64,000 bases of DNA from Clostridiales bacterium Firm_18 (GCA_001604215.1 LVAX01000092.1:3027-67026), one strand, 5' to 3'; numbered from the stretch's first letter, positions 10,170 to 51,973 are shown. The notes: generated by a model from the sequence alone, not told the origin. Translations and numbers: made by a program.

Positions 10170-10180
10170 CTTTATTTAAA

Positions 10181-10297
10181 TTTATAGGAAATTGCGCGAA
10201 AGGCGCGCAATTTCACGCTCCGGCGAAATAAATTCGCCTGCGCTTACGCTCGCGCGGCGAGATGAGGCGTTCGGGAAAGCGCTACGCGCCCGAACGC
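10181..10297 (+). repeat. 118-bp multi-hairpin repeat element, copy A
   Basis: Four consecutive stem-loops: ATTGCGCG/CGCGCAAT, GGCGAA/TTCGCC, CTCGC/GCGAG, GCGTTCGGG/CCCGAACGC. Followed by ATTATTTTTTT. Directly downstream of the large + strand gene. Confidence 0.85.
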
Positions 10298-10310
10298 ATT
10301 ATTTTTTTAA

Positions 10311-10427
10311 TTTATAGGAAATTGCGCAAAACCCGCGCAATTTCGCGCTTCGGCGGAATGAATCCGCCTTCGCTTTCCCTCGCGGGGCGAGATGAGGCGT
10401 TCGGGAAAGCGCTACGCGCCCGAACGC
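10311..10427 (+). repeat. 118-bp multi-hairpin repeat element, copy B (tandem to copy A, 130-bp period)
   Basis: Same architecture as copy A. The second stem is GGCGGA/TCCGCC, which is compensatory relative to copy A. Followed by TTTTTT. Overlaps the last codons and the stop of the minus-strand PBP gene. Confidence 0.85.
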
Positions 10428-45317: not shown

Positions 45318-45337
45318 GTACATTCCCCCTTTGATTA

Positions 45338-45666
45338 TGAGCGTAAGAGCGTAAGAGCTGAAGAGCCTAAGAGCTCAAGAGCTGAAGAGCTTAAGAGCGT
45401 AAGAGCTTAAGAGCCTCCGCTTTTCCGCCTTTTAGCTATTCAGCCTTTCCGCTTTTCCGCTTTTTAGCTTTTTAGCTTTTTAGCTATTCCGCTTTTTAGC
45501 TATTCAGCTTTTTAGCTTTTCCGCTTTTCCGCTTTTCAGCCTTTCAGCTTTTCAGCCTTTCAGCTTTTCAGCTATTCAGCTTTTCAGCTATTCAGCTTTT
45601 CAGCTATTCAGCTTTTCCGCTCTTCAGCTTTTCCGCTTTTCCGCTCGTCCGCTATTCCGCTTCTAC
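45338..45666. repeat. 8-bp tandem repeat array B1: about 9.5 NNAAGAGC units, then about 31 GCTNTTNN units
   Basis: Read directly. GTAAGAGC GTAAGAGC TGAAGAGC CTAAGAGC TCAAGAGC ... up to 45414, then GCTTTTCC GCCTTTTA GCTATTCA ... to about 45666. The last units supply the final codons and stop of copZ. Confidence 0.95.
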
Positions 45667-45870
45667 TTCATACCCTGCTTCGTTTATTCCTTCTTTAATC
45701 TGTTCGAGGTTTGTGCCCGTGCTGTCATAATCCACCGAAACGGTGCCTTCGTCAACGCTTACGCTTACGGACATCACGCCGGGTATTTTATCCAGTTCCT
45801 TTTTCACCGCTTTGGCACAATGCTCGCAGCTCATGCCTCTTACTTGTATATTTGCCGTTTCTTTTGCCAT
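45652..45870 (-). CDS. copZ: heavy-metal-associated domain copper chaperone
   Basis: 72 aa with the metal-binding motif GMSCEHC in a ferredoxin-like HMA fold pattern. Confidence 0.85.
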   Translation of the reverse strand: MAKETANIQVRGMSCEHCAKAVKKELDKIPGVMSVSVSVDEGTVSVDYDSTGTNLEQIKEGINEAGYEVEAE

Positions 45871-45906
45871 TTGTTATCACAGTCCTTTGGTTTTTTGTTT
45901 AATAGA

Positions 45907-45954
45907 TGAAGAGCTGAAAAGCTGAAGAGCTCAAGAGCTTCCGCTCTTCCGCTC
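45907..45954. repeat. 8-bp tandem repeat array B2 (4 forward plus 2 reverse units)
   Basis: TGAAGAGC TGAAAAGC TGAAGAGC TCAAGAGC TTCCGCTC TTCCGCTC, in the divergent copZ/asnB intergenic region. Confidence 0.9.
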
Positions 45955-46043
45955 ATTATCTTTCCCTCTTTCACGCAATATTATATAATATTTTCCGCAA
46001 TATATCAATATATATTAGTGTAGAATAGTTGGGAGGGTGAAAA

Positions 46044-47885
46044 ATGTGCGGAATTGTAGGATATATTGATTTCGAAAACGATGTCTCGGGCGAGATGGAA
46101 ATAATAAACGAGATGAAGGATATGTTAAAGCACAGGGGGCCCGATTCATCCGGGGTATGGCTGTGCAACGAGGCGGCCATAGGCCACACGCGCCTTGCCG
46201 TAATCGACATCGAGGGGGGCGCCCAGCCGATGGTCAGGACAGAGGGGGAGGACAAATACGTTATAACATATAACGGGGAGCTTTACAACACAAACGAACT
46301 CCGGTACGAACTGGAGTATATGGGGCATAATTTTTATACCCGCTCGGATACGGAGGTTGTACTGGCAAGCTATATCCAATGGGGGGACGGCTGCCTGTCC
46401 CGGCTAAACGGCATATATGCCTTCGGCGTGTGGGACGACGGCAAAAAAACGCTTTTTTTGGGCCGCGACAGGTTCGGGGTAAAGCCTTTGTTTTATACCC
46501 TATGCAAAGGCAAGCTTATTTTCGCTTCCGAGATTAAAGCCATACTTGCGCATCCCAATGTGGAAGCGGTGATAGACAAAAACGGAATTGCGGAGGTGTT
46601 CGGGCTCGGTCCCGCCCGCACCCCCGGCATCGGCGTGTTTAAGGACATATACGAGCTGAAGCCGGCCCACTTTATGCGCTATAACAAAACGGGAATGAGC
46701 ATAAGAAGGTATTGGGAGCTTGCAAGCGAGGAACATTCCGACAACCTTTCCAATACCGCGGAAAAAGTAAGGTATTTGGTCAGGGATTCAATTACAAAAC
46801 AGCTTGTGTCGGATGTCCCGCTTTGCACCTTTTTATCGGGCGGGCTTGATTCGAGCGCCATAACCGCAATCGCGGCAAACCAATACGTTTTTGAAAAAGG
46901 GGTGCGCATAGATTCGTATTCCTTTGATTACAAGGATAACGACAAGTTTTTCAAGCGCAGCATATTCCAGCCCGACACCGATAAAATGTGGATTGACATA
47001 ATGAGCATCGAAACGTCCTCAAGACACAAATACCTTGTGGCGGATGTTGATTCTGTGGTAAACGGTCTGGAAGCGGCGGTTTATGCCCGCGACCTGCCCG
47101 GCATGGCGGATGTGGATTCGTCACTGCTGTATTTTTGCTCTTTGGTTAAAAAACGCCATACCGTTGCCCTGTCGGGCGAATGCGCCGACGAGATTTTCGG
47201 CGGCTACCCGTGGTTCCACTCACAAAAGGCGTTTGAAACCCAAATGTTCCCGTGGATGAATTCCCTCCCGCAGCGTGTGGCTTTGTTAAATCCGGATATG
47301 GCGTTTTATACCGACTTGGAGGGATATGTGAAAAAAAGATATATCGAAACGGTTGAAAAAACACCCAGGCTGCAAGGCGAGAACCAGCATGAGGCACGCA
47401 GGAGGGAGCTGTTTTATTTAAATATTGTATGGTTTATGTCGCTGCTTTTGGAGCGCAAGGACAGAATGAGCATGGCAAGCGGACTGGAGGTCAGGGTTCC
47501 GTTTTGCGACCACCGCCTTGCCGAATATGTCTGGAACATACCGTGGAATATGAAGTCGCTCGGAGGAAGGGAAAAGGGCATTTTAAGGCTTGCAATGAAG
47601 GGTATATTGCCGGATGTGATAATCGAGCGCAAAAAGAACCCGTACCCGAAAACCTATAACCCCGGGTATGAATTTAAAGTAAAGGAGATTTTAAATGAGA
47701 TACTTGCTGATAATAATTCGCCGCTGCTGGAGATAATAAACAAGGAATATGTAATGCAACTGATGAGCGGGACAAACGACAATTCCGCGCCCTTTTTCGG
47801 CCAGCTTATGTGTATGCCCCAGTTGTTCGCGTATCTAATACAGGTGAATATGTGGCTGAGAAATTATAGGATATCGATTAGGTGA
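46044..47885 (+). CDS. asnB: asparagine synthase (glutamine-hydrolysing)
   Basis: 613 aa. N-terminal nucleophile MCGIVGY (class II GATase) and the synthetase-domain PP-loop SGGLDSS. Confidence 0.9.
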   Translation: MCGIVGYIDFENDVSGEMEIINEMKDMLKHRGPDSSGVWLCNEAAIGHTRLAVIDIEGGAQPMVRTEGEDKYVITYNGELYNTNELRYELEYMGHNFYTRSDTEVVLASYIQWGDGCLSRLNGIYAFGVWDDGKKTLFLGRDRFGVKPLFYTLCKGKLIFASEIKAILAHPNVEAVIDKNGIAEVFGLGPARTPGIGVFKDIYELKPAHFMRYNKTGMSIRRYWELASEEHSDNLSNTAEKVRYLVRDSITKQLVSDVPLCTFLSGGLDSSAITAIAANQYVFEKGVRIDSYSFDYKDNDKFFKRSIFQPDTDKMWIDIMSIETSSRHKYLVADVDSVVNGLEAAVYARDLPGMADVDSSLLYFCSLVKKRHTVALSGECADEIFGGYPWFHSQKAFETQMFPWMNSLPQRVALLNPDMAFYTDLEGYVKKRYIETVEKTPRLQGENQHEARRRELFYLNIVWFMSLLLERKDRMSMASGLEVRVPFCDHRLAEYVWNIPWNMKSLGGREKGILRLAMKGILPDVIIERKKNPYPKTYNPGYEFKVKEILNEILADNNSPLLEIINKEYVMQLMSGTNDNSAPFFGQLMCMPQLFAYLIQVNMWLRNYRISIR

Positions 47886-47887
47886 GA

Positions 47888-48058
47888 TGAGCTTAAGAGC
47901 TAAAGAGCTAAAAAGCTAAAGAGCTTAATAGCTTAAGAGCTGAATAGCGCAAGGGCGTAAAGGCATTAACCTTTACGCCCTTGTTTTTTAGCTTTTCCGC
48001 TTTTTAGCTTTTCCGCTTTTTAGCTTTTCCGCTTTTTAGCTTTTCCGCTTTTCAGCTT
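47888..48058. repeat. 8-bp repeat array B3: forward arm, central GC hairpin, reverse arm
   Basis: Forward units TTAAGAGC TAAAGAGC TAAAAAGC ... (47888-47948). Central hairpin at 47950-47983. Reverse units GCTTTTCC GCTTTTTA ... (47990-48058) run into the stop of the SLH gene. Confidence 0.95.
47950..47989 (+). terminator. intrinsic terminator of asnB embedded in repeat array B3
   Basis: AAGGGCGTAAAGG-CATTAA-CCTTTACGCCCTT has a 13-bp stem and is followed by TTTTTT. Confidence 0.85.
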
Positions 48059-49224
48059 GCCATGTCCATCTCAGCTATCAGCTGGCGCATTACTTCGGGG
48101 TTGCTTTCTTTGTATTTAATTGTTTGCAGTATCATTTCCGCGGCCATTGCGCGCGTTATCTTTGCAAACGGTCTTACCGTGCCGTCGTCATAACCTCTTA
48201 CCAGCCCGTAAGCGGTCATGTTGCTGATATACGGAATTCCCCACTCCGGAACAATATCCAAGTCGGTGTAATCGGGCAAATCCTCAGGCTCCGCGTCCGG
48301 CTTTATTGTGTTGTTAAGCATTGCGATTGATTCCAGACGTGTAAGCTTTTCCGAGGCGCGCAGATAAAGCTTGTCGCCTTCCAAAGAGCCTTTGATAATA
48401 CCCGCGTCATATGCCGCTTTTGCCTGCAGGTTCATCCACGCGGGGGTTTCTTCCGCGTCCGCAAAGGGCGAAGGCATTTCGGCATATTCCGAAACATCAA
48501 TTCCCATGGCGGATACAAGATACAGGATAAAATCCCCTCTTGACAGTTCGCTTTCGGGATAAAAATAAAATTTATTCCCTATTTGAAAACCTTTTAAAAT
48601 ATTTCTTTCGCCGAGCCGTATTGCCGAATACTCGCCCCAATGGTTAAACATATCTTCATATCTGAACGAATATACCGGCGGGGTGGGCTCGGGAGATTCT
48701 TCCGGAGAAGGTTCGGGTGATTCTTCCGGCGACTCTTCCGGTGAAGGCTCGGGCGACTCCTCGGGCTCTTCGGATATTGTAACCGAAATCGTGGCCGTTT
48801 CCGTTCCAAGATCATCTGATGTAACGGAAAAAACAAAAGAATCGGTGCCTGTCTCATCCTCATGCGGCGTATAGGTAAAATCCCCGTTTGAGGTATCCGT
48901 TATTTCAACATCACCCTTTGTGGGCGGCGTTTCAATGTCAAACATCACTTCTTCTTCAGCCGGTACGTTACATTCCATTGAGCCGGTTGCGGGAGTGTTG
49001 ACAATGACGTTTAACGTGCCGTCCAGAGCGGCAAATTCCCCCGTATTTTGGGTTACCGACGTTTTAATCGAGCTTTGATACGTTGCTTTTTTGCTGAAAA
49101 TCGAAAAAATGTTAAACCCGGGCTTTTCATCACTGTTTACAAAACTTGCGTCAGATGCAATTGCTGCCGTATGGATTAGTAAAACCGCCGCAGCAGCAAA
49201 ACTTATTTTTTTAATATGCTTCAT
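48052..49224 (-). CDS. secreted cell-wall protein with a Pro/Glu/Ser linker and three C-terminal SLH domains
   Basis: 390 aa with signal peptide MKHIKKISFAAAAVLLIHTAAIA and a PEESPEPSPEESPE linker. Three SLH-like segments (FRYEDMFNHWGEYS..., FADAEETPAWMNLQ..., YTDLDIVPEWGIPY...). Confidence 0.8.
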   Translation of the reverse strand: MKHIKKISFAAAAVLLIHTAAIASDASFVNSDEKPGFNIFSIFSKKATYQSSIKTSVTQNTGEFAALDGTLNVIVNTPATGSMECNVPAEEEVMFDIETPPTKGDVEITDTSNGDFTYTPHEDETGTDSFVFSVTSDDLGTETATISVTISEEPEESPEPSPEESPEESPEPSPEESPEPTPPVYSFRYEDMFNHWGEYSAIRLGERNILKGFQIGNKFYFYPESELSRGDFILYLVSAMGIDVSEYAEMPSPFADAEETPAWMNLQAKAAYDAGIIKGSLEGDKLYLRASEKLTRLESIAMLNNTIKPDAEPEDLPDYTDLDIVPEWGIPYISNMTAYGLVRGYDDGTVRPFAKITRAMAAEMILQTIKYKESNPEVMRQLIAEMDMAS

Positions 49225-49292
49225 TTATCCTCATCTCCTATCAGTAAATATTTTCTCTAATTTGCAAAAGTATATGCGGACTAAAAAATGGT

Positions 49293-49424
49293 AACAGAGC
49301 GGAAAAGCGTAAGAGCGGAAGAGCTGAAAAGCTGAAGAGCTTAAAAGCTGAATAGCTAAATAGCTAAAGAGCTTAAGAGCGGAAAATCGGCAAGGGTGTA
49401 AGGGCAAATACCTTTACTCTTTTG
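49293..49424. repeat. 8-bp repeat array B4: 12 forward units plus a degenerate copy of the central hairpin, with no adjacent reverse arm
   Basis: AACAGAGC GGAAAAGC GTAAGAGC ... GGAAAATC (49293-49388), then GGCAAGGGTGTAAGGGCAAATACCTTTACTCTTTTG, which resembles the B3 centre. Confidence 0.9.
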
Positions 49425-49509
49425 TGAGTCTGTGGAAACTTTGTGTTTGTTAATAAAAAACTCTTTCTTGGCAGAAATTAGGATATGAAGCTAAGGGTGA
49501 GATTTTTGC

Positions 49510-49689
49510 ATGTTAGTGTTACCAAACATTGTAAAGTTAATGAAGTTCTTCATTTTTTTACTTAGGATAGAAGATGTACGAAATGCTCTTGGAAAAGAAG
49601 TTGATGTTTTTGACGTCACACATATTATTCCTGATTCTAAGATTTCGAAAGAGATCAACAAGGATGGAGTAGTGATTTATGAAAAATAA
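49510..49689 (+). pseudogene. mntA: MntA-type nucleotidyltransferase antitoxin, C-terminal remnant only
   Basis: A 59-codon frame ends ...LRIEDVRNALGKEVDVFDVTHIIPDSKISKEINKDGVVIYEK, the typical C-terminal half of minimal NTases. The catalytic GS...DxD part is absent. Overlaps the hepT start by 11 nt. Confidence 0.6.
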
Positions 49690-50012
49690 GATTATAGTTG
49701 AAAAGATTCTCAAGTATATTAAAAAAGTAAAAAACTATACAGAAAACGCAACCTACGACGAATTTGTTTGTAATTCTATGATGGTAGAGGCTTGTGTTTT
49801 TAACCTTGGTCAAATAGGAGAGCTTGCAAACAAAATAGACAAGAAATTTGAAACTTTATTACAGTAATATTCCATGGAGAACACTATATGGTCTTAGGAA
49901 TAAAATAGTCCACGATTACGAGGGTGTAAATTTAGTGCTTATATGGGATATAATCAAGAATGATTTAACAAATCTATACGGACAACTAACTGATTTATAT
50001 AATATGATGTAG
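49679..50012 (+). pseudogene. hepT: HepT (DUF86) toxin gene inactivated by a +1 frameshift
   Basis: The listed ORF stops at 49867 (...KKFETLLQ*). The next frame, from 49869, continues IPWRTLYGLRNKIVHDYEGVNLVLIWDIIKNDL...* and carries the RxxxH motif (RNKIVH). Removing one nt near 49856-49861 restores ...ETLYSNIPWR.... Confidence 0.8.
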
Positions 50013-50018
50013 TAATAA

Positions 50019-50050
50019 ACCTGCAAGCCCTAATAGCCTGCAGGTTTTGT
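50019..50050 (+). terminator. intrinsic terminator after the hepT remnant
   Basis: ACCTGCA-(13-nt loop)-TGCAGGT followed by TTTTGT. Confidence 0.55.
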
Positions 50051-50072
50051 ATAACAATTCATTTGTTTTTAC

Positions 50073-50813
50073 TCACTTGCCGCTCTTCAGCCCTTCCGCT
50101 CTTAACCTCTTCAGCCCCAAAACCACTTCCCCCGCGATTATCAGACCTGCGACGGAGGGGACAAATGCCACGCTGCCCGGCACCTGTCTTTTTCCGGGCG
50201 GGCATACCTCGCCGACAGATTCGGGTTTTATCGGAGGCTCTTTTGAATATACCACCTTTAACGAATCTATGCCCCTTGCTTTCAACTCTTTTCTCATAAC
50301 CTTCGCAAGAGGGCAGACCGAGGTGTTATATATATCGTCCACTTCAAACATTGTCGGGTTCAGCTTATTGCCCGCGCCCATGCTGCTTATTATCGGCACA
50401 TTCGATTTTTTTGCGTTTTCGATAAGCAGCAGCTTTGACGATACGGTGTCTATCGCGTCAACAACATAATCATACTTTGACAGGTCAAAACTGCCGGCAT
50501 TTTCCGCGCTGTAAAAGCAGTGGTATGAATATACCGTTGCGTCCGGGTTAATATCTTCAATGCGTTCCTTCATTACGTCAGCCTTTTTCCTGCCCAGCGT
50601 TTTGGTTGTTGCGATAAGCTGACGGTTTATGTTCGATTCGCACACAACATCGCCGTCAAACAGCGAAATTGTTCCGACGCCGCTCCTTGCAAGCGCCTCT
50701 GCCACATACGAGCCGACACCCCCTACCCCGAAAATTGCCACGGAGGCATTTTTAAGCCTTTCCATACATTCGCCGCCAAGCAGCATTTCACTTCGTACAA
50801 ACCGGTTTGACAT
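50073..50813 (-). CDS. tcdA: tRNA threonylcarbamoyladenosine dehydratase (ThiF/MoeB-type E1-like)
   Basis: 246 aa with the nucleotide-binding motif VAIFGVGGVGSY and general TcdA/CsdL-like layout. The last ~13 codons (LKRLRAEGLKSGK) are encoded by 8-bp repeat units. Confidence 0.8.
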   Translation of the reverse strand: MSNRFVRSEMLLGGECMERLKNASVAIFGVGGVGSYVAEALARSGVGTISLFDGDVVCESNINRQLIATTKTLGRKKADVMKERIEDINPDATVYSYHCFYSAENAGSFDLSKYDYVVDAIDTVSSKLLLIENAKKSNVPIISSMGAGNKLNPTMFEVDDIYNTSVCPLAKVMRKELKARGIDSLKVVYSKEPPIKPESVGEVCPPGKRQVPGSVAFVPSVAGLIIAGEVVLGLKRLRAEGLKSGK

Positions 50814-50904
50814 TCAATCACCCCAAAAAAATGATATATTAAAAAAATATCTTGCAAAAAAACTCCAATTATGGTACAATATAGTACAAGCAGATAAGAC
50901 AATT

Positions 50905-51010
50905 TAAAAAAGTCGCCGTGACCGAGAAGTGAGGCAACACTCCTCGGCTCGCGCAAAAGGTGACGGAACCACCCCTGCACGTACTCAAATATGAGCCACA
51001 AGCGACATTA
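50905..51010 (-). ncRNA. candidate ~100-nt structured RNA (leader or sRNA) upstream of tcdA, class unknown
   Basis: On the minus strand, a closing stem GTCGCTTGTGGC/GTCACGGCGAC encloses three hairpins: CTCA-TATT-TGAG, GTGCAGGGGTG-GTTCCGT-CACCTTTTGCGC and CCGAGGAGTG-TTGCCT-CACTTCTCGG. It is followed by TTTTTT and preceded by a good promoter. Confidence 0.4.
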
Positions 51011-51013
51011 CAT

Positions 51014-51042
51014 AGTATAACACATTTCCCCTTTTTTTACAA
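51014..51042 (-). promoter_or_regulatory. promoter for the candidate RNA / tcdA
   Basis: On the minus strand, TTGTAA (51037-42), a 17-nt spacer, TATACT (51014-19) with an upstream TGT (extended -10). Confidence 0.55.
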
Positions 51043-51227
51043 GAGGGCTGAAATGATATTTTACTATAAAAATGTAGCCAAGGCACATTGACATCAGGTG
51101 GAAAACCGCCTTTTGCCGATGTGCCTTATTTGCGTGGTTTTATACGGAAACAGGGCGGCATTTCCGTATAGAACCGTACATTAAGAATACCAATCAGCGA
51201 CTTAAAATACATGGTTTTAGTTGCAGA

Positions 51228-51256
51228 TTGGTATTGAAAGAAGTTAAATATATAAT
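51228..51256 (+). promoter_or_regulatory. promoter of the GGDEF gene
   Basis: TTGGTA (51228-33), a 17-nt spacer, TATAAT (51251-56), then AAGGTGG RBS and the ATG at 51275. Confidence 0.55.
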
Positions 51257-51274
51257 ACAAGGTGGCTAATCATT

Positions 51275-51844
51275 ATGAATTTTTTTGTTTTTGCAATTCT
51301 TTTTACTCTCTTTGCTTTTTTGGTTTTTATTTTTATACTTTTGAAAATCATAAAAGCGCTGTATAAATTGGCGTATTATGATTACCTGACCGGAGTATAC
51401 AACAGAAGGTATCTGTCCGGGTATATGCAAAGACTGGCCGAAAAGCGACAATCCGTCTGTTGTGTAATGCTTGATATGGATAACTTCAAAAAAATCAACG
51501 ACACCCTCGGGCACAGCATAGGTGACAAGGTTATAAAAGAAATCGCCGCAATATTGCAAAAGGCAATTGCTTCGTCAAACATGCGCGGCTTTGTTGCCAG
51601 GTACGGCGGGGACGAATTTTACATGGTTTTGCATACAAAAAACAAATTCCTTGTCAAGCCCGTTATCAATAAAATCAAACTCGCCTTCGAGCAGTTTTAT
51701 TTTTTCGCAAGCATGCCCCACAAAATATCCTGCTCTGTCGGCTATGATATATACGACCCCGCCAAGTGGAGCAGCTTTGACATGTTCGAAAGGCATATAG
51801 ACAAGCTGATGTATAAGAACAAAGGAAAAATATCATGTAATTAA
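51275..51844 (+). CDS. diguanylate cyclase (single TM helix plus GGDEF domain)
   Basis: 189 aa with YDYLTGVYNRRY, MLDMDNFKKINDTLGH and the active-site RYGGDEF. Confidence 0.88.
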   Translation: MNFFVFAILFTLFAFLVFIFILLKIIKALYKLAYYDYLTGVYNRRYLSGYMQRLAEKRQSVCCVMLDMDNFKKINDTLGHSIGDKVIKEIAAILQKAIASSNMRGFVARYGGDEFYMVLHTKNKFLVKPVINKIKLAFEQFYFFASMPHKISCSVGYDIYDPAKWSSFDMFERHIDKLMYKNKGKISCN

Positions 51845-51861
51845 AAACTTGTTAAATCATT

Positions 51862-51973
51862 GCCCTTCAGCTCTTGAGCTTATAAGCCTTTCCGCTCTTA
51901 AGCTCTTCCGCTCTTAAGCTCTTCCGCTCTTAAGCTCTTCAGCTCTTGAGCTTTTTCGCTCTTCCGCTTTTAT
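51862..51973. repeat. 8-bp repeat array B5 (14 reverse-type units)
   Basis: GCCCTTCA GCTCTTGA GCTTATAA GCCTTTCC GCTCTTAA GCTCTTCC ... GCTTTTAT. Sits between the GGDEF gene and the AT-rich EPS island. Confidence 0.95.

Follow-up and report, generated by a model that had tools for sequence, protein, structure and literature searches.

Tandem arrays of a degenerate octanucleotide occur at six places in a 64,000-nucleotide stretch of DNA from Clostridiales bacterium Firm_18 (GCA_001604215.1 LVAX01000092.1:3027-67026), which was analysed as a whole and is referred to here as the window. The arrays, numbered A1 to A6, are clustered between positions 45335 and 51973. Pfam searches identified the neighbouring genes as encoding a histidine kinase (HK), an OmpR-type response regulator (RR), HMA/copZ, asnB, an SLH/Ig-like wall protein, ThiF/tcdA and a GGDEF protein, with a sugar transferase at the start of an exopolysaccharide (EPS) cluster. 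A preliminary description of the region, made from its sequence, had named the copZ, asnB, SLH, tcdA and GGDEF genes in the same way, and these assignments are confirmed, as are those of the RR and sugar transferase genes.

Tandem Repeats Finder detected arrays with a period of 8 at 45335-45414, 45419-45645, 45907-45954, 47889-47948, 47985-48058, 49296-49384, 50080-50112 and 51865-51968, with super-periods of 16, 24 and 32 alongside. A register-aware scan resolved 95 contiguous 8-bp units, in register, at six places within 45335-51973, and both methods, as well as direct reading of the sequence, agree with the six sites named in the preliminary description. The units follow the consensus K-N-A-A-[G/A/T]-A-G-C, with almost no variation at positions 3, 4, 6, 7 and 8 and variable bases at positions 1, 2 and 5; they comprise 33 different 8-mers, and 32 of the 95 carry an AAAAGC core. 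Within the 64-kb window, Tandem Repeats Finder found no comparable period-8 array outside 45335-51973, and the register-aware scan found no outside block of three or more units (shuffled windows, used as its control, gave 0-2 short blocks). The two-unit pattern AADAGCNNAADAGC has 62 matches, compared with 0.22 expected in 64 kb, and all but one of these are inside the array region. The blocks and their associated hairpins are as follows.

45335-45414, + strand: A1 forward block, 10 units, mostly NNAAGAGC.
45419-45666, - strand: A1 reverse block, 31 units, read on the - strand as NNAAAAGC/NNAATAGC.
45899-45954, both orientations: A2, 5 forward and 2 reverse units, with a small hairpin AAGAGC-TTCC-GCTCTT.
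47885-47948, + strand: A3 forward block, 8 units, starting from the final base of the asnB TGA (47883-47885).
47949-47990, + strand: A3 core, an intrinsic terminator; its GC hairpin (47949-47984) has a stem of 15 bp (GCAAGGGCGTAAAGG / CCTTTACGCCCTTG) and a loop of 6 nt and is followed by T6.
47983-48058, - strand: A3 reverse block, 9 units, mostly the 16-bp super-unit GCTTTTTA GCTTTTCC, present four times.
49293-49388, + strand: A4 forward block, 12 units, on the opposite strand to the SLH gene and 69 bp upstream of its start.
49390-49425, + strand: A4 hairpin, which repeats the A3 terminator core in degenerate form (GGCAAGGGTGTAAGGG-CAAATA-CCTTTACTCTTTTG).
50079-50116, - strand: A5, 4-5 degenerate units that form the C-terminal tail of the ThiF/tcdA open reading frame (ORF; stop codon 50073-50075).
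51862-51973, - strand: A6, 14 units, forward on the - strand, beginning 17 bp past the GGDEF stop codon.

The two blocks of A1 are joined by CTCC, and 12 bp separate the forward block from the RR start codon (- strand, start 45323). A2 is located in the divergent copZ/asnB gap. No tRNA genes were found in the window, and no Rfam families at gathering thresholds; at E <= 1, Rfam returned only spurious, miRNA-precursor-like hairpin matches on the arrays.

The preliminary description had seen such arrays nowhere else, which is correct for the 64-kb window but not for the genome. A metagenome scan with a mixed-unit pattern returned 43 loci, one of which is the SLH locus of the window (98.7% identity). 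Two contigs from the same sample share its unit repertoire. One contains 20 forward and 3 reverse units between the convergent genes tepA (ClpP-like) and peptidase M16, and the other contains 11 units in sense orientation directly behind cdaR, upstream of a tRNA-Thr gene. Contigs with the tepA/M16 array were recovered from the same five samples as the contigs of the window, and their closest named relative is, again, "Firmicutes bacterium ADurb.Bin193". The tepA/M16 array is located in the same organism as the window, and the cdaR/tRNA-Thr array probably is as well. Further arrays were absent from ~27 kb around tepA and from ~9 kb to the left of the window. Since these flanks and surroundings are free of arrays, the repeat family is dispersed but sparse, and the six arrays within 6.6 kb form a real local cluster. 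No database record was found for the GGDEF protein or for the protein at the right end of the window.

Placement of the arrays relative to genes follows several patterns. They had been described as filling nearly every intergenic gap, which holds for six of the seven gaps, the tcdA/GGDEF gap being free of an array. The further statement that they lie between genes needs amendment, as A1 extends over the copZ stop codon and A3 over that of the SLH gene, and A5, previously considered intergenic, encodes the final ~14 residues of TcdA. The copZ stop codon (TAG, 45652-45654) is the TAG within a GGAATAGC unit of the A1 reverse block, and the SLH gene ends with the TGA (48052-48054) of the first A3 reverse unit; the tepA stop codon likewise resides inside a unit. 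Seven of the eight blocks that adjoin a gene 3' end, a count that includes the two loci outside the window, read NNAARAGC in the sense of the gene, the exception being A6 behind the GGDEF gene. TGA or TAA is present in 62 of the 95 units in gene-sense orientation and, because 8 = 2 mod 3, every reading frame is closed by a run of three units. At the 5' side of copZ, a promoter-like site was found at 45980-46008 (11 of 12 matches), with A2 between this site and the copZ start codon, and A2 probably lies within a putative copZ 5' untranslated region (UTR).

The same copZ/asnB gap also contains an AT-rich motif (…TATCAATATATATTA(T/G)TGTA…GGAGGG) upstream of asnB, which is kept in species with and without arrays (window 45960-46043; L130 9867-10000; L135 9817-10000) and is untouched by A2. 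A function of this motif as an operator or leader is possible.

Strains of the same species were represented by contigs from more than 20 independent metagenome assemblies (NCBI, JGI, ENA and Logan) that encode exactly the same AsnB, SLH protein or TepA. The flanks of the arrays are 99-100% identical among these contigs, and one 13-kb contig is 99.1-99.9% identical to the window. Between fixed anchors, A1 measures 350, 294, 166, 166 and 142 bp in different strains, with 4-11 units in the forward block and 11-31 in the reverse block. A2 has alleles of 65 or 73 bp, a difference of one unit, each found in several independent assemblies. For A3, eight alleles of 158-190 bp were identified, in which the reverse arm alone varies in number (5-9 units, with 2-4 copies of the 16-bp super-unit GCTTTTTA-GCTTTTCC) and the number of forward units is constant. 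Three alleles of A4 have equal length and differ in unit types, and the coding-embedded A5 is invariant in nine contigs. The tepA array shows six alleles in six complete contigs (102, 110 or 174 bp), and TepA proteins end at 234, 237, 242, 245 or 253 residues depending on the allele, with tails such as ...ELKS, ...ERKSGKA, ...ERKSGKAEKLKS and ...AEKRKSEKAEKRKSGKA (L176, L202-L203, L214-L221); this protein-length polymorphism is caused by the repeat. Every length difference is a multiple of 8 bp and can be traced to neighbouring blocks of 1-4 units that were duplicated or lost, as in contig L002, in which the 24-bp block CTAAGAGC-TCAAGAGC-TGAAGAGC is duplicated. The preliminary description had listed a hypervariable repeat among the options and proposed comparing unit counts between strains; this comparison revealed length polymorphism at A1, A2 and A3, which directly supports that option.

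One further difference between strains was noted between A4 and a HepT-like ORF, where the window lacks, at ~49567, 250 bp that are present in other strains (L001 11379-11628). This deletion, which is shared by some contigs, takes away the 5' part of a nucleotidyltransferase (MNT) antitoxin-like gene; other contigs encode an intact pair of a 103-aa MNT and a 62-aa HepT-like protein.

Comparison with related species revealed orthologous sites that are empty. The nearest AsnB homologues have 79%, 77%, 74% and 73% identity, the last of these belonging to ADurb.Bin193, which places the window in an uncultured lineage of Clostridia that inhabits anaerobic digesters. The gene order HK-RR-copZ-asnB is kept in the relatives with AsnB identities of 79% and 73%, the latter of which also keeps the SLH gene, and the 74% relative retains only HK-RR near asnB. 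None of the orthologous gaps in these three relatives (79%, 74% and 73%) contains an 8-bp array; they hold ordinary hairpin terminators or an unrelated 125-bp repeat. Similarly, the tepA/M16 gap of ADurb.Bin193 (TepA 80%) is without an array. As relatives with the same gene order lack the arrays, a conserved function is not supported. A sister lineage, represented by contig L142, is 83.6% identical over window positions 50868-51915 and has 6 units at the A6 site, compared with 14 in the window; the left boundary is the same and the right flank differs. A6 thus coincides with a synteny break relative to this contig: the left side is 84% identical, and the right side, which leads towards the EPS cluster and has a GC content of 35%, has no counterpart.

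A second dispersed repeat was encountered in these sequences. It is ~125-130 bp long, contains several GC-rich hairpins (AATAAAGCGTTCGGGCGCGTAGCGCTTTCCCGAACGC...GAAATTGCGCTTTGCGTAATTTCC) and is present in 1.9 tandem copies at window 10175-10427, as well as at L214 12270-12400, L217 3755-4010 and L135 9403-9603, with one or two copies per sample at another locus. It had no Rfam match. In ADurb.Bin193, a diverged copy occupies the RR/copZ gap, the exact site of A1 in the window.

Facing forward and reverse blocks are predicted to pair core to core, leaving the two variable positions as small internal loops, in line with the long hairpins envisaged in the preliminary description. The asnB/SLH gap is predicted to fold as a single hairpin, with -92.4 kcal/mol (z = -9.9) for the + strand RNA and -74.7 kcal/mol (z = -6.6) for the - strand RNA, and its centre is the canonical intrinsic terminator after asnB (15-bp stem and T6). 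For A1, the predicted value is about -118 kcal/mol on either strand (z = -5 to -7); a small hairpin is predicted for A2, and single-orientation blocks fold weakly via an AGCU palindrome, which arises when position 1 is U. A GC-rich stem-loop with a T run, positioned downstream of a gene, is present in the A3 core only, the copy in A4 being degenerate and A1, A2, A5 and A6 having no terminator core. The proposed terminator role is thus partially supported, in that A3 is built around such a structure. The A3 core and the A4 hairpin share 83% identity when the two units in front of them are counted in, and the gene-proximal end of A6 (AAGGGCAAT) resembles one half of the A4 hairpin, which indicates that an "array + hairpin" module was copied within the region. 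We also considered selection for pairing at the RNA level and rejected it as inconsistent: the + strand is favoured by G-U wobbles at A3 but also at A1, which is transcribed from the - strand.

We consider it most probable, with a probability of about 0.6, that the arrays constitute a lineage-specific family of long simple sequence repeats (SSRs), an octanucleotide "satellite" that is the 8-bp analogue of the short tandemly repeated repetitive (STRR) heptamers of cyanobacteria. They consist of head-to-tail units in the 5-11-nt range without spacers, occupy several dispersed and mainly non-coding loci, change in copy number by whole units between strains and have a sporadic, lineage-restricted distribution. 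The arrays may have started at gene ends, from terminator stems or from small AAGAGC-NNNN-GCTCTT palindromes, and could have grown and shrunk by slipped-strand mispairing or unequal exchange, favoured by hairpin formation. Local copying would have spread them to neighbouring gaps, with the "array + hairpin" modules of A3 and A4 as likely paralogues, and expansion would have halted where coding sequence would suffer. Such a process would require no dedicated binding protein. The cellular effects of the arrays, namely longer terminator or 3'-end hairpins, stops in all frames and variable C-terminal tails, are probably by-products, and the reinforcement of terminators and the all-frame stops are at most side effects.

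The preliminary description did not recognise the repeat as a described type, but dispersed tandem repeats of 5-11 nt, which include STRR sequences and long SSRs, are an established class and have been known in bacteria since 1990. To our knowledge, nearly all work on them concerns heptamers in Cyanobacteria, Xanthomonas and Beggiatoaceae, whose function is unknown, and our literature search found no paper on the present repeat sequence itself. STRR sequences occur at about a hundred loci per genome. In filamentous cyanobacteria, STRR 7-mers form hairpins between genes, for example between hupS and hupL; their function is unknown, and roles in transcript stability or termination have been proposed (PMC2670836). 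The arrays described here resemble them in being short, contiguous, intergenic tandem units that are dispersed, lineage-specific and hairpin-forming. They differ in sequence, in unit length (8 bp, with a 6-nt core and two variable positions, compared with 7 bp), in host (uncultured Clostridia as opposed to Cyanobacteria) and in number, with 7-8 loci so far, six of them clustered. Long SSRs of 5-11 nt are characterized by a sporadic phylogenetic distribution and a slippage model (PMC4679880), and the class defined by Mrazek et al. 2007, as summarised in PMC4679880 and PMC4692102, lies mostly outside coding sequence unless its unit length is divisible by 3. The present arrays share with this class tandem 5-11-nt units, sporadic distribution, mostly non-coding location and variation attributed to polymerase slippage, whereas the class consists mainly of heptamers, usually with near-identical units, and the present arrays are degenerate (33 8-mers in 95 units) and contain facing blocks.

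Other known repeats share individual features. GGGNATC repeats of Xanthomonas and Nostoc lie on the sense strand, no more than 50 bp from stop codons (PMC4692102). These and the TAACTGA repeats of Beggiatoaceae, Cyanobacteria and Bacteroidetes are, like the octamers, tandem repeats that are scattered over intergenic regions and vary in copy number (2-26 and 2-43, respectively), and the TAACTGA unit is made of stop codons, as here. However, both are 7-mers, one of which forms G-quadruplexes while the other is located just upstream of start codons, and they are not described as facing arrays around terminators or as a source of the stop codons of genes. In Geobacter metallireducens, paired tandem units of 7-8 nt, three to five in number, face each other on opposite strands at variable distance at tens of loci, with unknown function (PMC2700814). 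The facing hepta- or octanucleotide units resemble the arrangement seen here, but they have a small, fixed copy number and other sequences, and were proposed to be sites of a global regulator.

Several observations weigh against an origin by slippage and local copying. At all loci, conservation is far stronger at positions 3, 4, 6, 7 and 8 than at positions 1, 2 and 5, and this counts against such an origin because pure slippage does not predict conservation of a core; a sequence-specific reader could lie behind the core, but selection for AAGAGC/GCTCTT pairing or common descent from a small number of founder units could explain it just as well. The occurrence of six arrays in 6.6 kb, with none in the other ~66 kb of contiguous sequence, is not explained by slippage and is only attributed to local copying, and the sense-strand bias at gene ends is not accounted for by slippage alone. 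The presence of A6 at the same site in a lineage that has diverged by 16% suggests persistence. In addition, many contigs are short-read assemblies that often end inside arrays, and some of the length differences of the long A1 array could be due to assembly collapse; the 8-bp differences at A2 and the 8-32-bp differences at A3 are not, since they were found with several assemblers. Core conservation, sense bias, retention of A6 and clustering therefore keep a protein-binding or regulatory interpretation alive.

Among such interpretations, the one that fares best, unlikely as it is, views the arrays as platforms for a multimeric, sequence-specific DNA- or RNA-binding protein that insulates or regulates neighbouring genes. 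A conserved 6-nt core with two variable "spacer" positions and the presence of both direct and inverted units would suit this purpose. So would the sense-strand bias of blocks beside gene ends, shown by 7 of 8 blocks here and by 13 of 18 in Bacteroidales contigs whose units are similar, and the facing pairs of AARAGC octamer arrays in Elusimicrobiota, Alphaproteobacteria, Opitutae and Bacteroidales, a motif that was, however, selected by the search pattern. Models at the DNA level are the contiguous 7-8-bp operator or centromere units that are reportedly bound by the ribbon-helix-helix proteins omega of pSM19035 and ParG of TP228. The omega and ParG/parH arrays are said to consist, like ours, of contiguous units without spacers in direct and inverted orientation, but to comprise a fixed number of 4-12 units at a plasmid promoter or centromere with the cognate gene adjacent, whereas the present arrays have 4 to 41 units and are mostly found at the 3' ends of chromosomal genes. 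No candidate gene for a binding protein was identified; specifically, Pfam revealed no ribbon-helix-helix-type protein among the annotated neighbours, with the small ORFs of the region not screened. Models at the RNA level are TRAP, HutP and CsrA-type proteins. TRAP sites contain nine to eleven GAG/UAG triplets 2-3 nt apart, and HutP sites contain two sets of three UAG triplets with 4-nt spacers. The likeness to these platforms drawn in the preliminary description does not survive closer comparison: triplets recur every 8 nt in the arrays, with 5-nt rather than 2-4-nt spacers, the AAAAGC units that make up a third of the total (32 of 95) contain neither triplet, and UAG is present in just 11 of the 95 cores. 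A binding platform is also difficult to reconcile with the 2-8-fold variation of unit number between strains, the lack of arrays in relatives that keep the same genes, and their presence in gaps of every kind and even within ORF ends.

It is likewise doubtful that the arrays are selected contingency loci, at which slippage would create heritable expression variants in a phase-variable or rheostat-like manner through the copZ 5' UTR, the RR-HK spacer or hairpin, and protein tails. The position of A2 between the promoter-like site and the copZ start, with two alleles that are common in many samples, fits this proposal, as do the proximity of A1 to the RR start codon, combined with its variation from 142 to 350 bp, and the variable TepA tails (234 to 253 aa). 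Most blocks, however, are positioned downstream of genes, where length should hardly matter; the flanking genes asnB, tcdA, tepA and cdaR are housekeeping genes and not surface or host-interaction genes; and arrays at ORF ends do not provide an on/off frameshift arrangement.

No more probable is the proposal that different phyla share AARAGC octamer arrays as a functional cis-element, which would be read by a multimeric protein or written by a process that measures 8 nt. Such an element would link Clostridia, Lentimicrobiaceae-like Bacteroidales, Elusimicrobiota, Opitutae and Alphaproteobacteria and would mark transcript ends in sense orientation, comparable to what was proposed for TAACTGA. 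A GTDB scan for the octamer pattern returned more than 119 loci in very diverse bacteria, most of them single arrays of one homogeneous 8-mer and, among the matches listed, none corresponding to the window, and octamer SSRs with an AARAGC core are thus a common background across bacteria. Facing pairs of such arrays around a central segment were found in an Elusimicrobiota, an alphaproteobacterial and an Opitutae metagenome-assembled genome (MAG), and Lentimicrobiaceae-like Bacteroidales contigs show a mild bias for sense orientation (13 vs 5); the search patterns required an AARAGC core, and the recurrence of that core across phyla is therefore not informative. Among viral contigs, 19 generic matches were obtained, several in giant-virus bins, with no link to the window.

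These scans also uncovered arrays of other kinds. The Lentimicrobiaceae-like Bacteroidales contigs (L136-L175, metagenomes Ga0209628 and Ga0209737) contain 52 octamer and 26 heptamer arrays in 210 kb, with many motifs, including CAGAAGAG, GTAAGACC and GGTGAGGG, and some facing compound arrays (L169 10395-11079). In Paenibacillus endophyticus (L119 6180-7540), octamer arrays (CTCTTCTG, GCTCTGTT) alternate at least four times with a conserved, hairpin-rich segment of ~250 bp, and a Verrucomicrobia MAG (L041 1920-2320) contains a ~125-bp compound unit of 7-mer and 8-mer runs three times.

It is quite improbable that the arrays mark where a mobile or recombination-prone element ends or has left its footprint, or that they are recombination hot spots around which a variable island between copZ and the EPS genes is organised. 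This proposal draws on the "array + hairpin" module, which occurs twice (A3 and A4) with a remnant at A6, on the position of A6 at a synteny break between the window and the sister lineage, and on the ATGAGC unit that starts three arrays (A1, A3 and tepA). AGCGG, the Chi sequence of Bacillus subtilis, is also present in 26 copies inside arrays, formed by units followed by GG. Against this, the copZ-asnB-SLH order is kept in relatives without arrays, so that the genes are not cassettes, and the arrays lack target-site duplications, a fixed element length and a neighbouring transposase. Outside arrays, AGCGG shows no strand skew (89 vs 74). An assembly artefact, which the preliminary description had raised, is excluded as far as the existence of the arrays is concerned: short-read contigs often stop inside arrays and the longest lengths are uncertain, but more than 20 contigs, which derive from independent samples and assemblers (NCBI, JGI, ENA and Logan), contain these arrays with an identical order of units at both flanks.

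Several established repeat classes and sites were compared and rejected, in agreement with the earlier description of a contiguous 8-bp unit that has no spacers and a non-coding period and is not of the CRISPR, REP or MITE type. Clustered regularly interspaced short palindromic repeat (CRISPR) arrays have repeats of 23-50 bp and unique spacers of similar length, and the units here are 8 bp long without spacers. Repetitive extragenic palindromic (REP) sequences and bacterial interspersed mosaic elements (BIMEs) are imperfect palindromes of 20-40 nt with a conserved head that exist in many near-identical copies, whereas the arrays are tandem 8-mers in which only the A3 and A4 hairpin cores are related. 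A miniature inverted-repeat transposable element (MITE), which has a defined length, terminal inverted repeats and a target-site duplication, does not fit arrays that vary in length among strains, have no boundary duplications and have independently varying arms, and the conserved copZ-asnB-SLH synteny without arrays speaks against an integron-like or cassette structure. A reading as Chi sites is uninformative, as AGCGG is ~2-fold over-represented on both strands outside arrays without skew. GAAGAGC is the recognition sequence of SapI/BspQI, but it is present in just 13 of the 95 units, and the match to a type IIS site was treated as a coincidence.

What is new in the present case, interpreted as a long-SSR family, is an octamer family in Clostridia of anaerobic digesters for which many natural alleles and clean "empty" orthologous sites are available. 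It is further distinguished by arrays that supply the stop codons of real genes, resulting in variable C-terminal tails, and that surround a terminator. In practical terms, the arrays break short-read assemblies, with most contigs of this species stopping inside one, leading to fragmented MAGs and to spurious protein length variants in databases. The family provides a simple system for measuring slippage rates and the effects of repeats on termination or mRNA stability.

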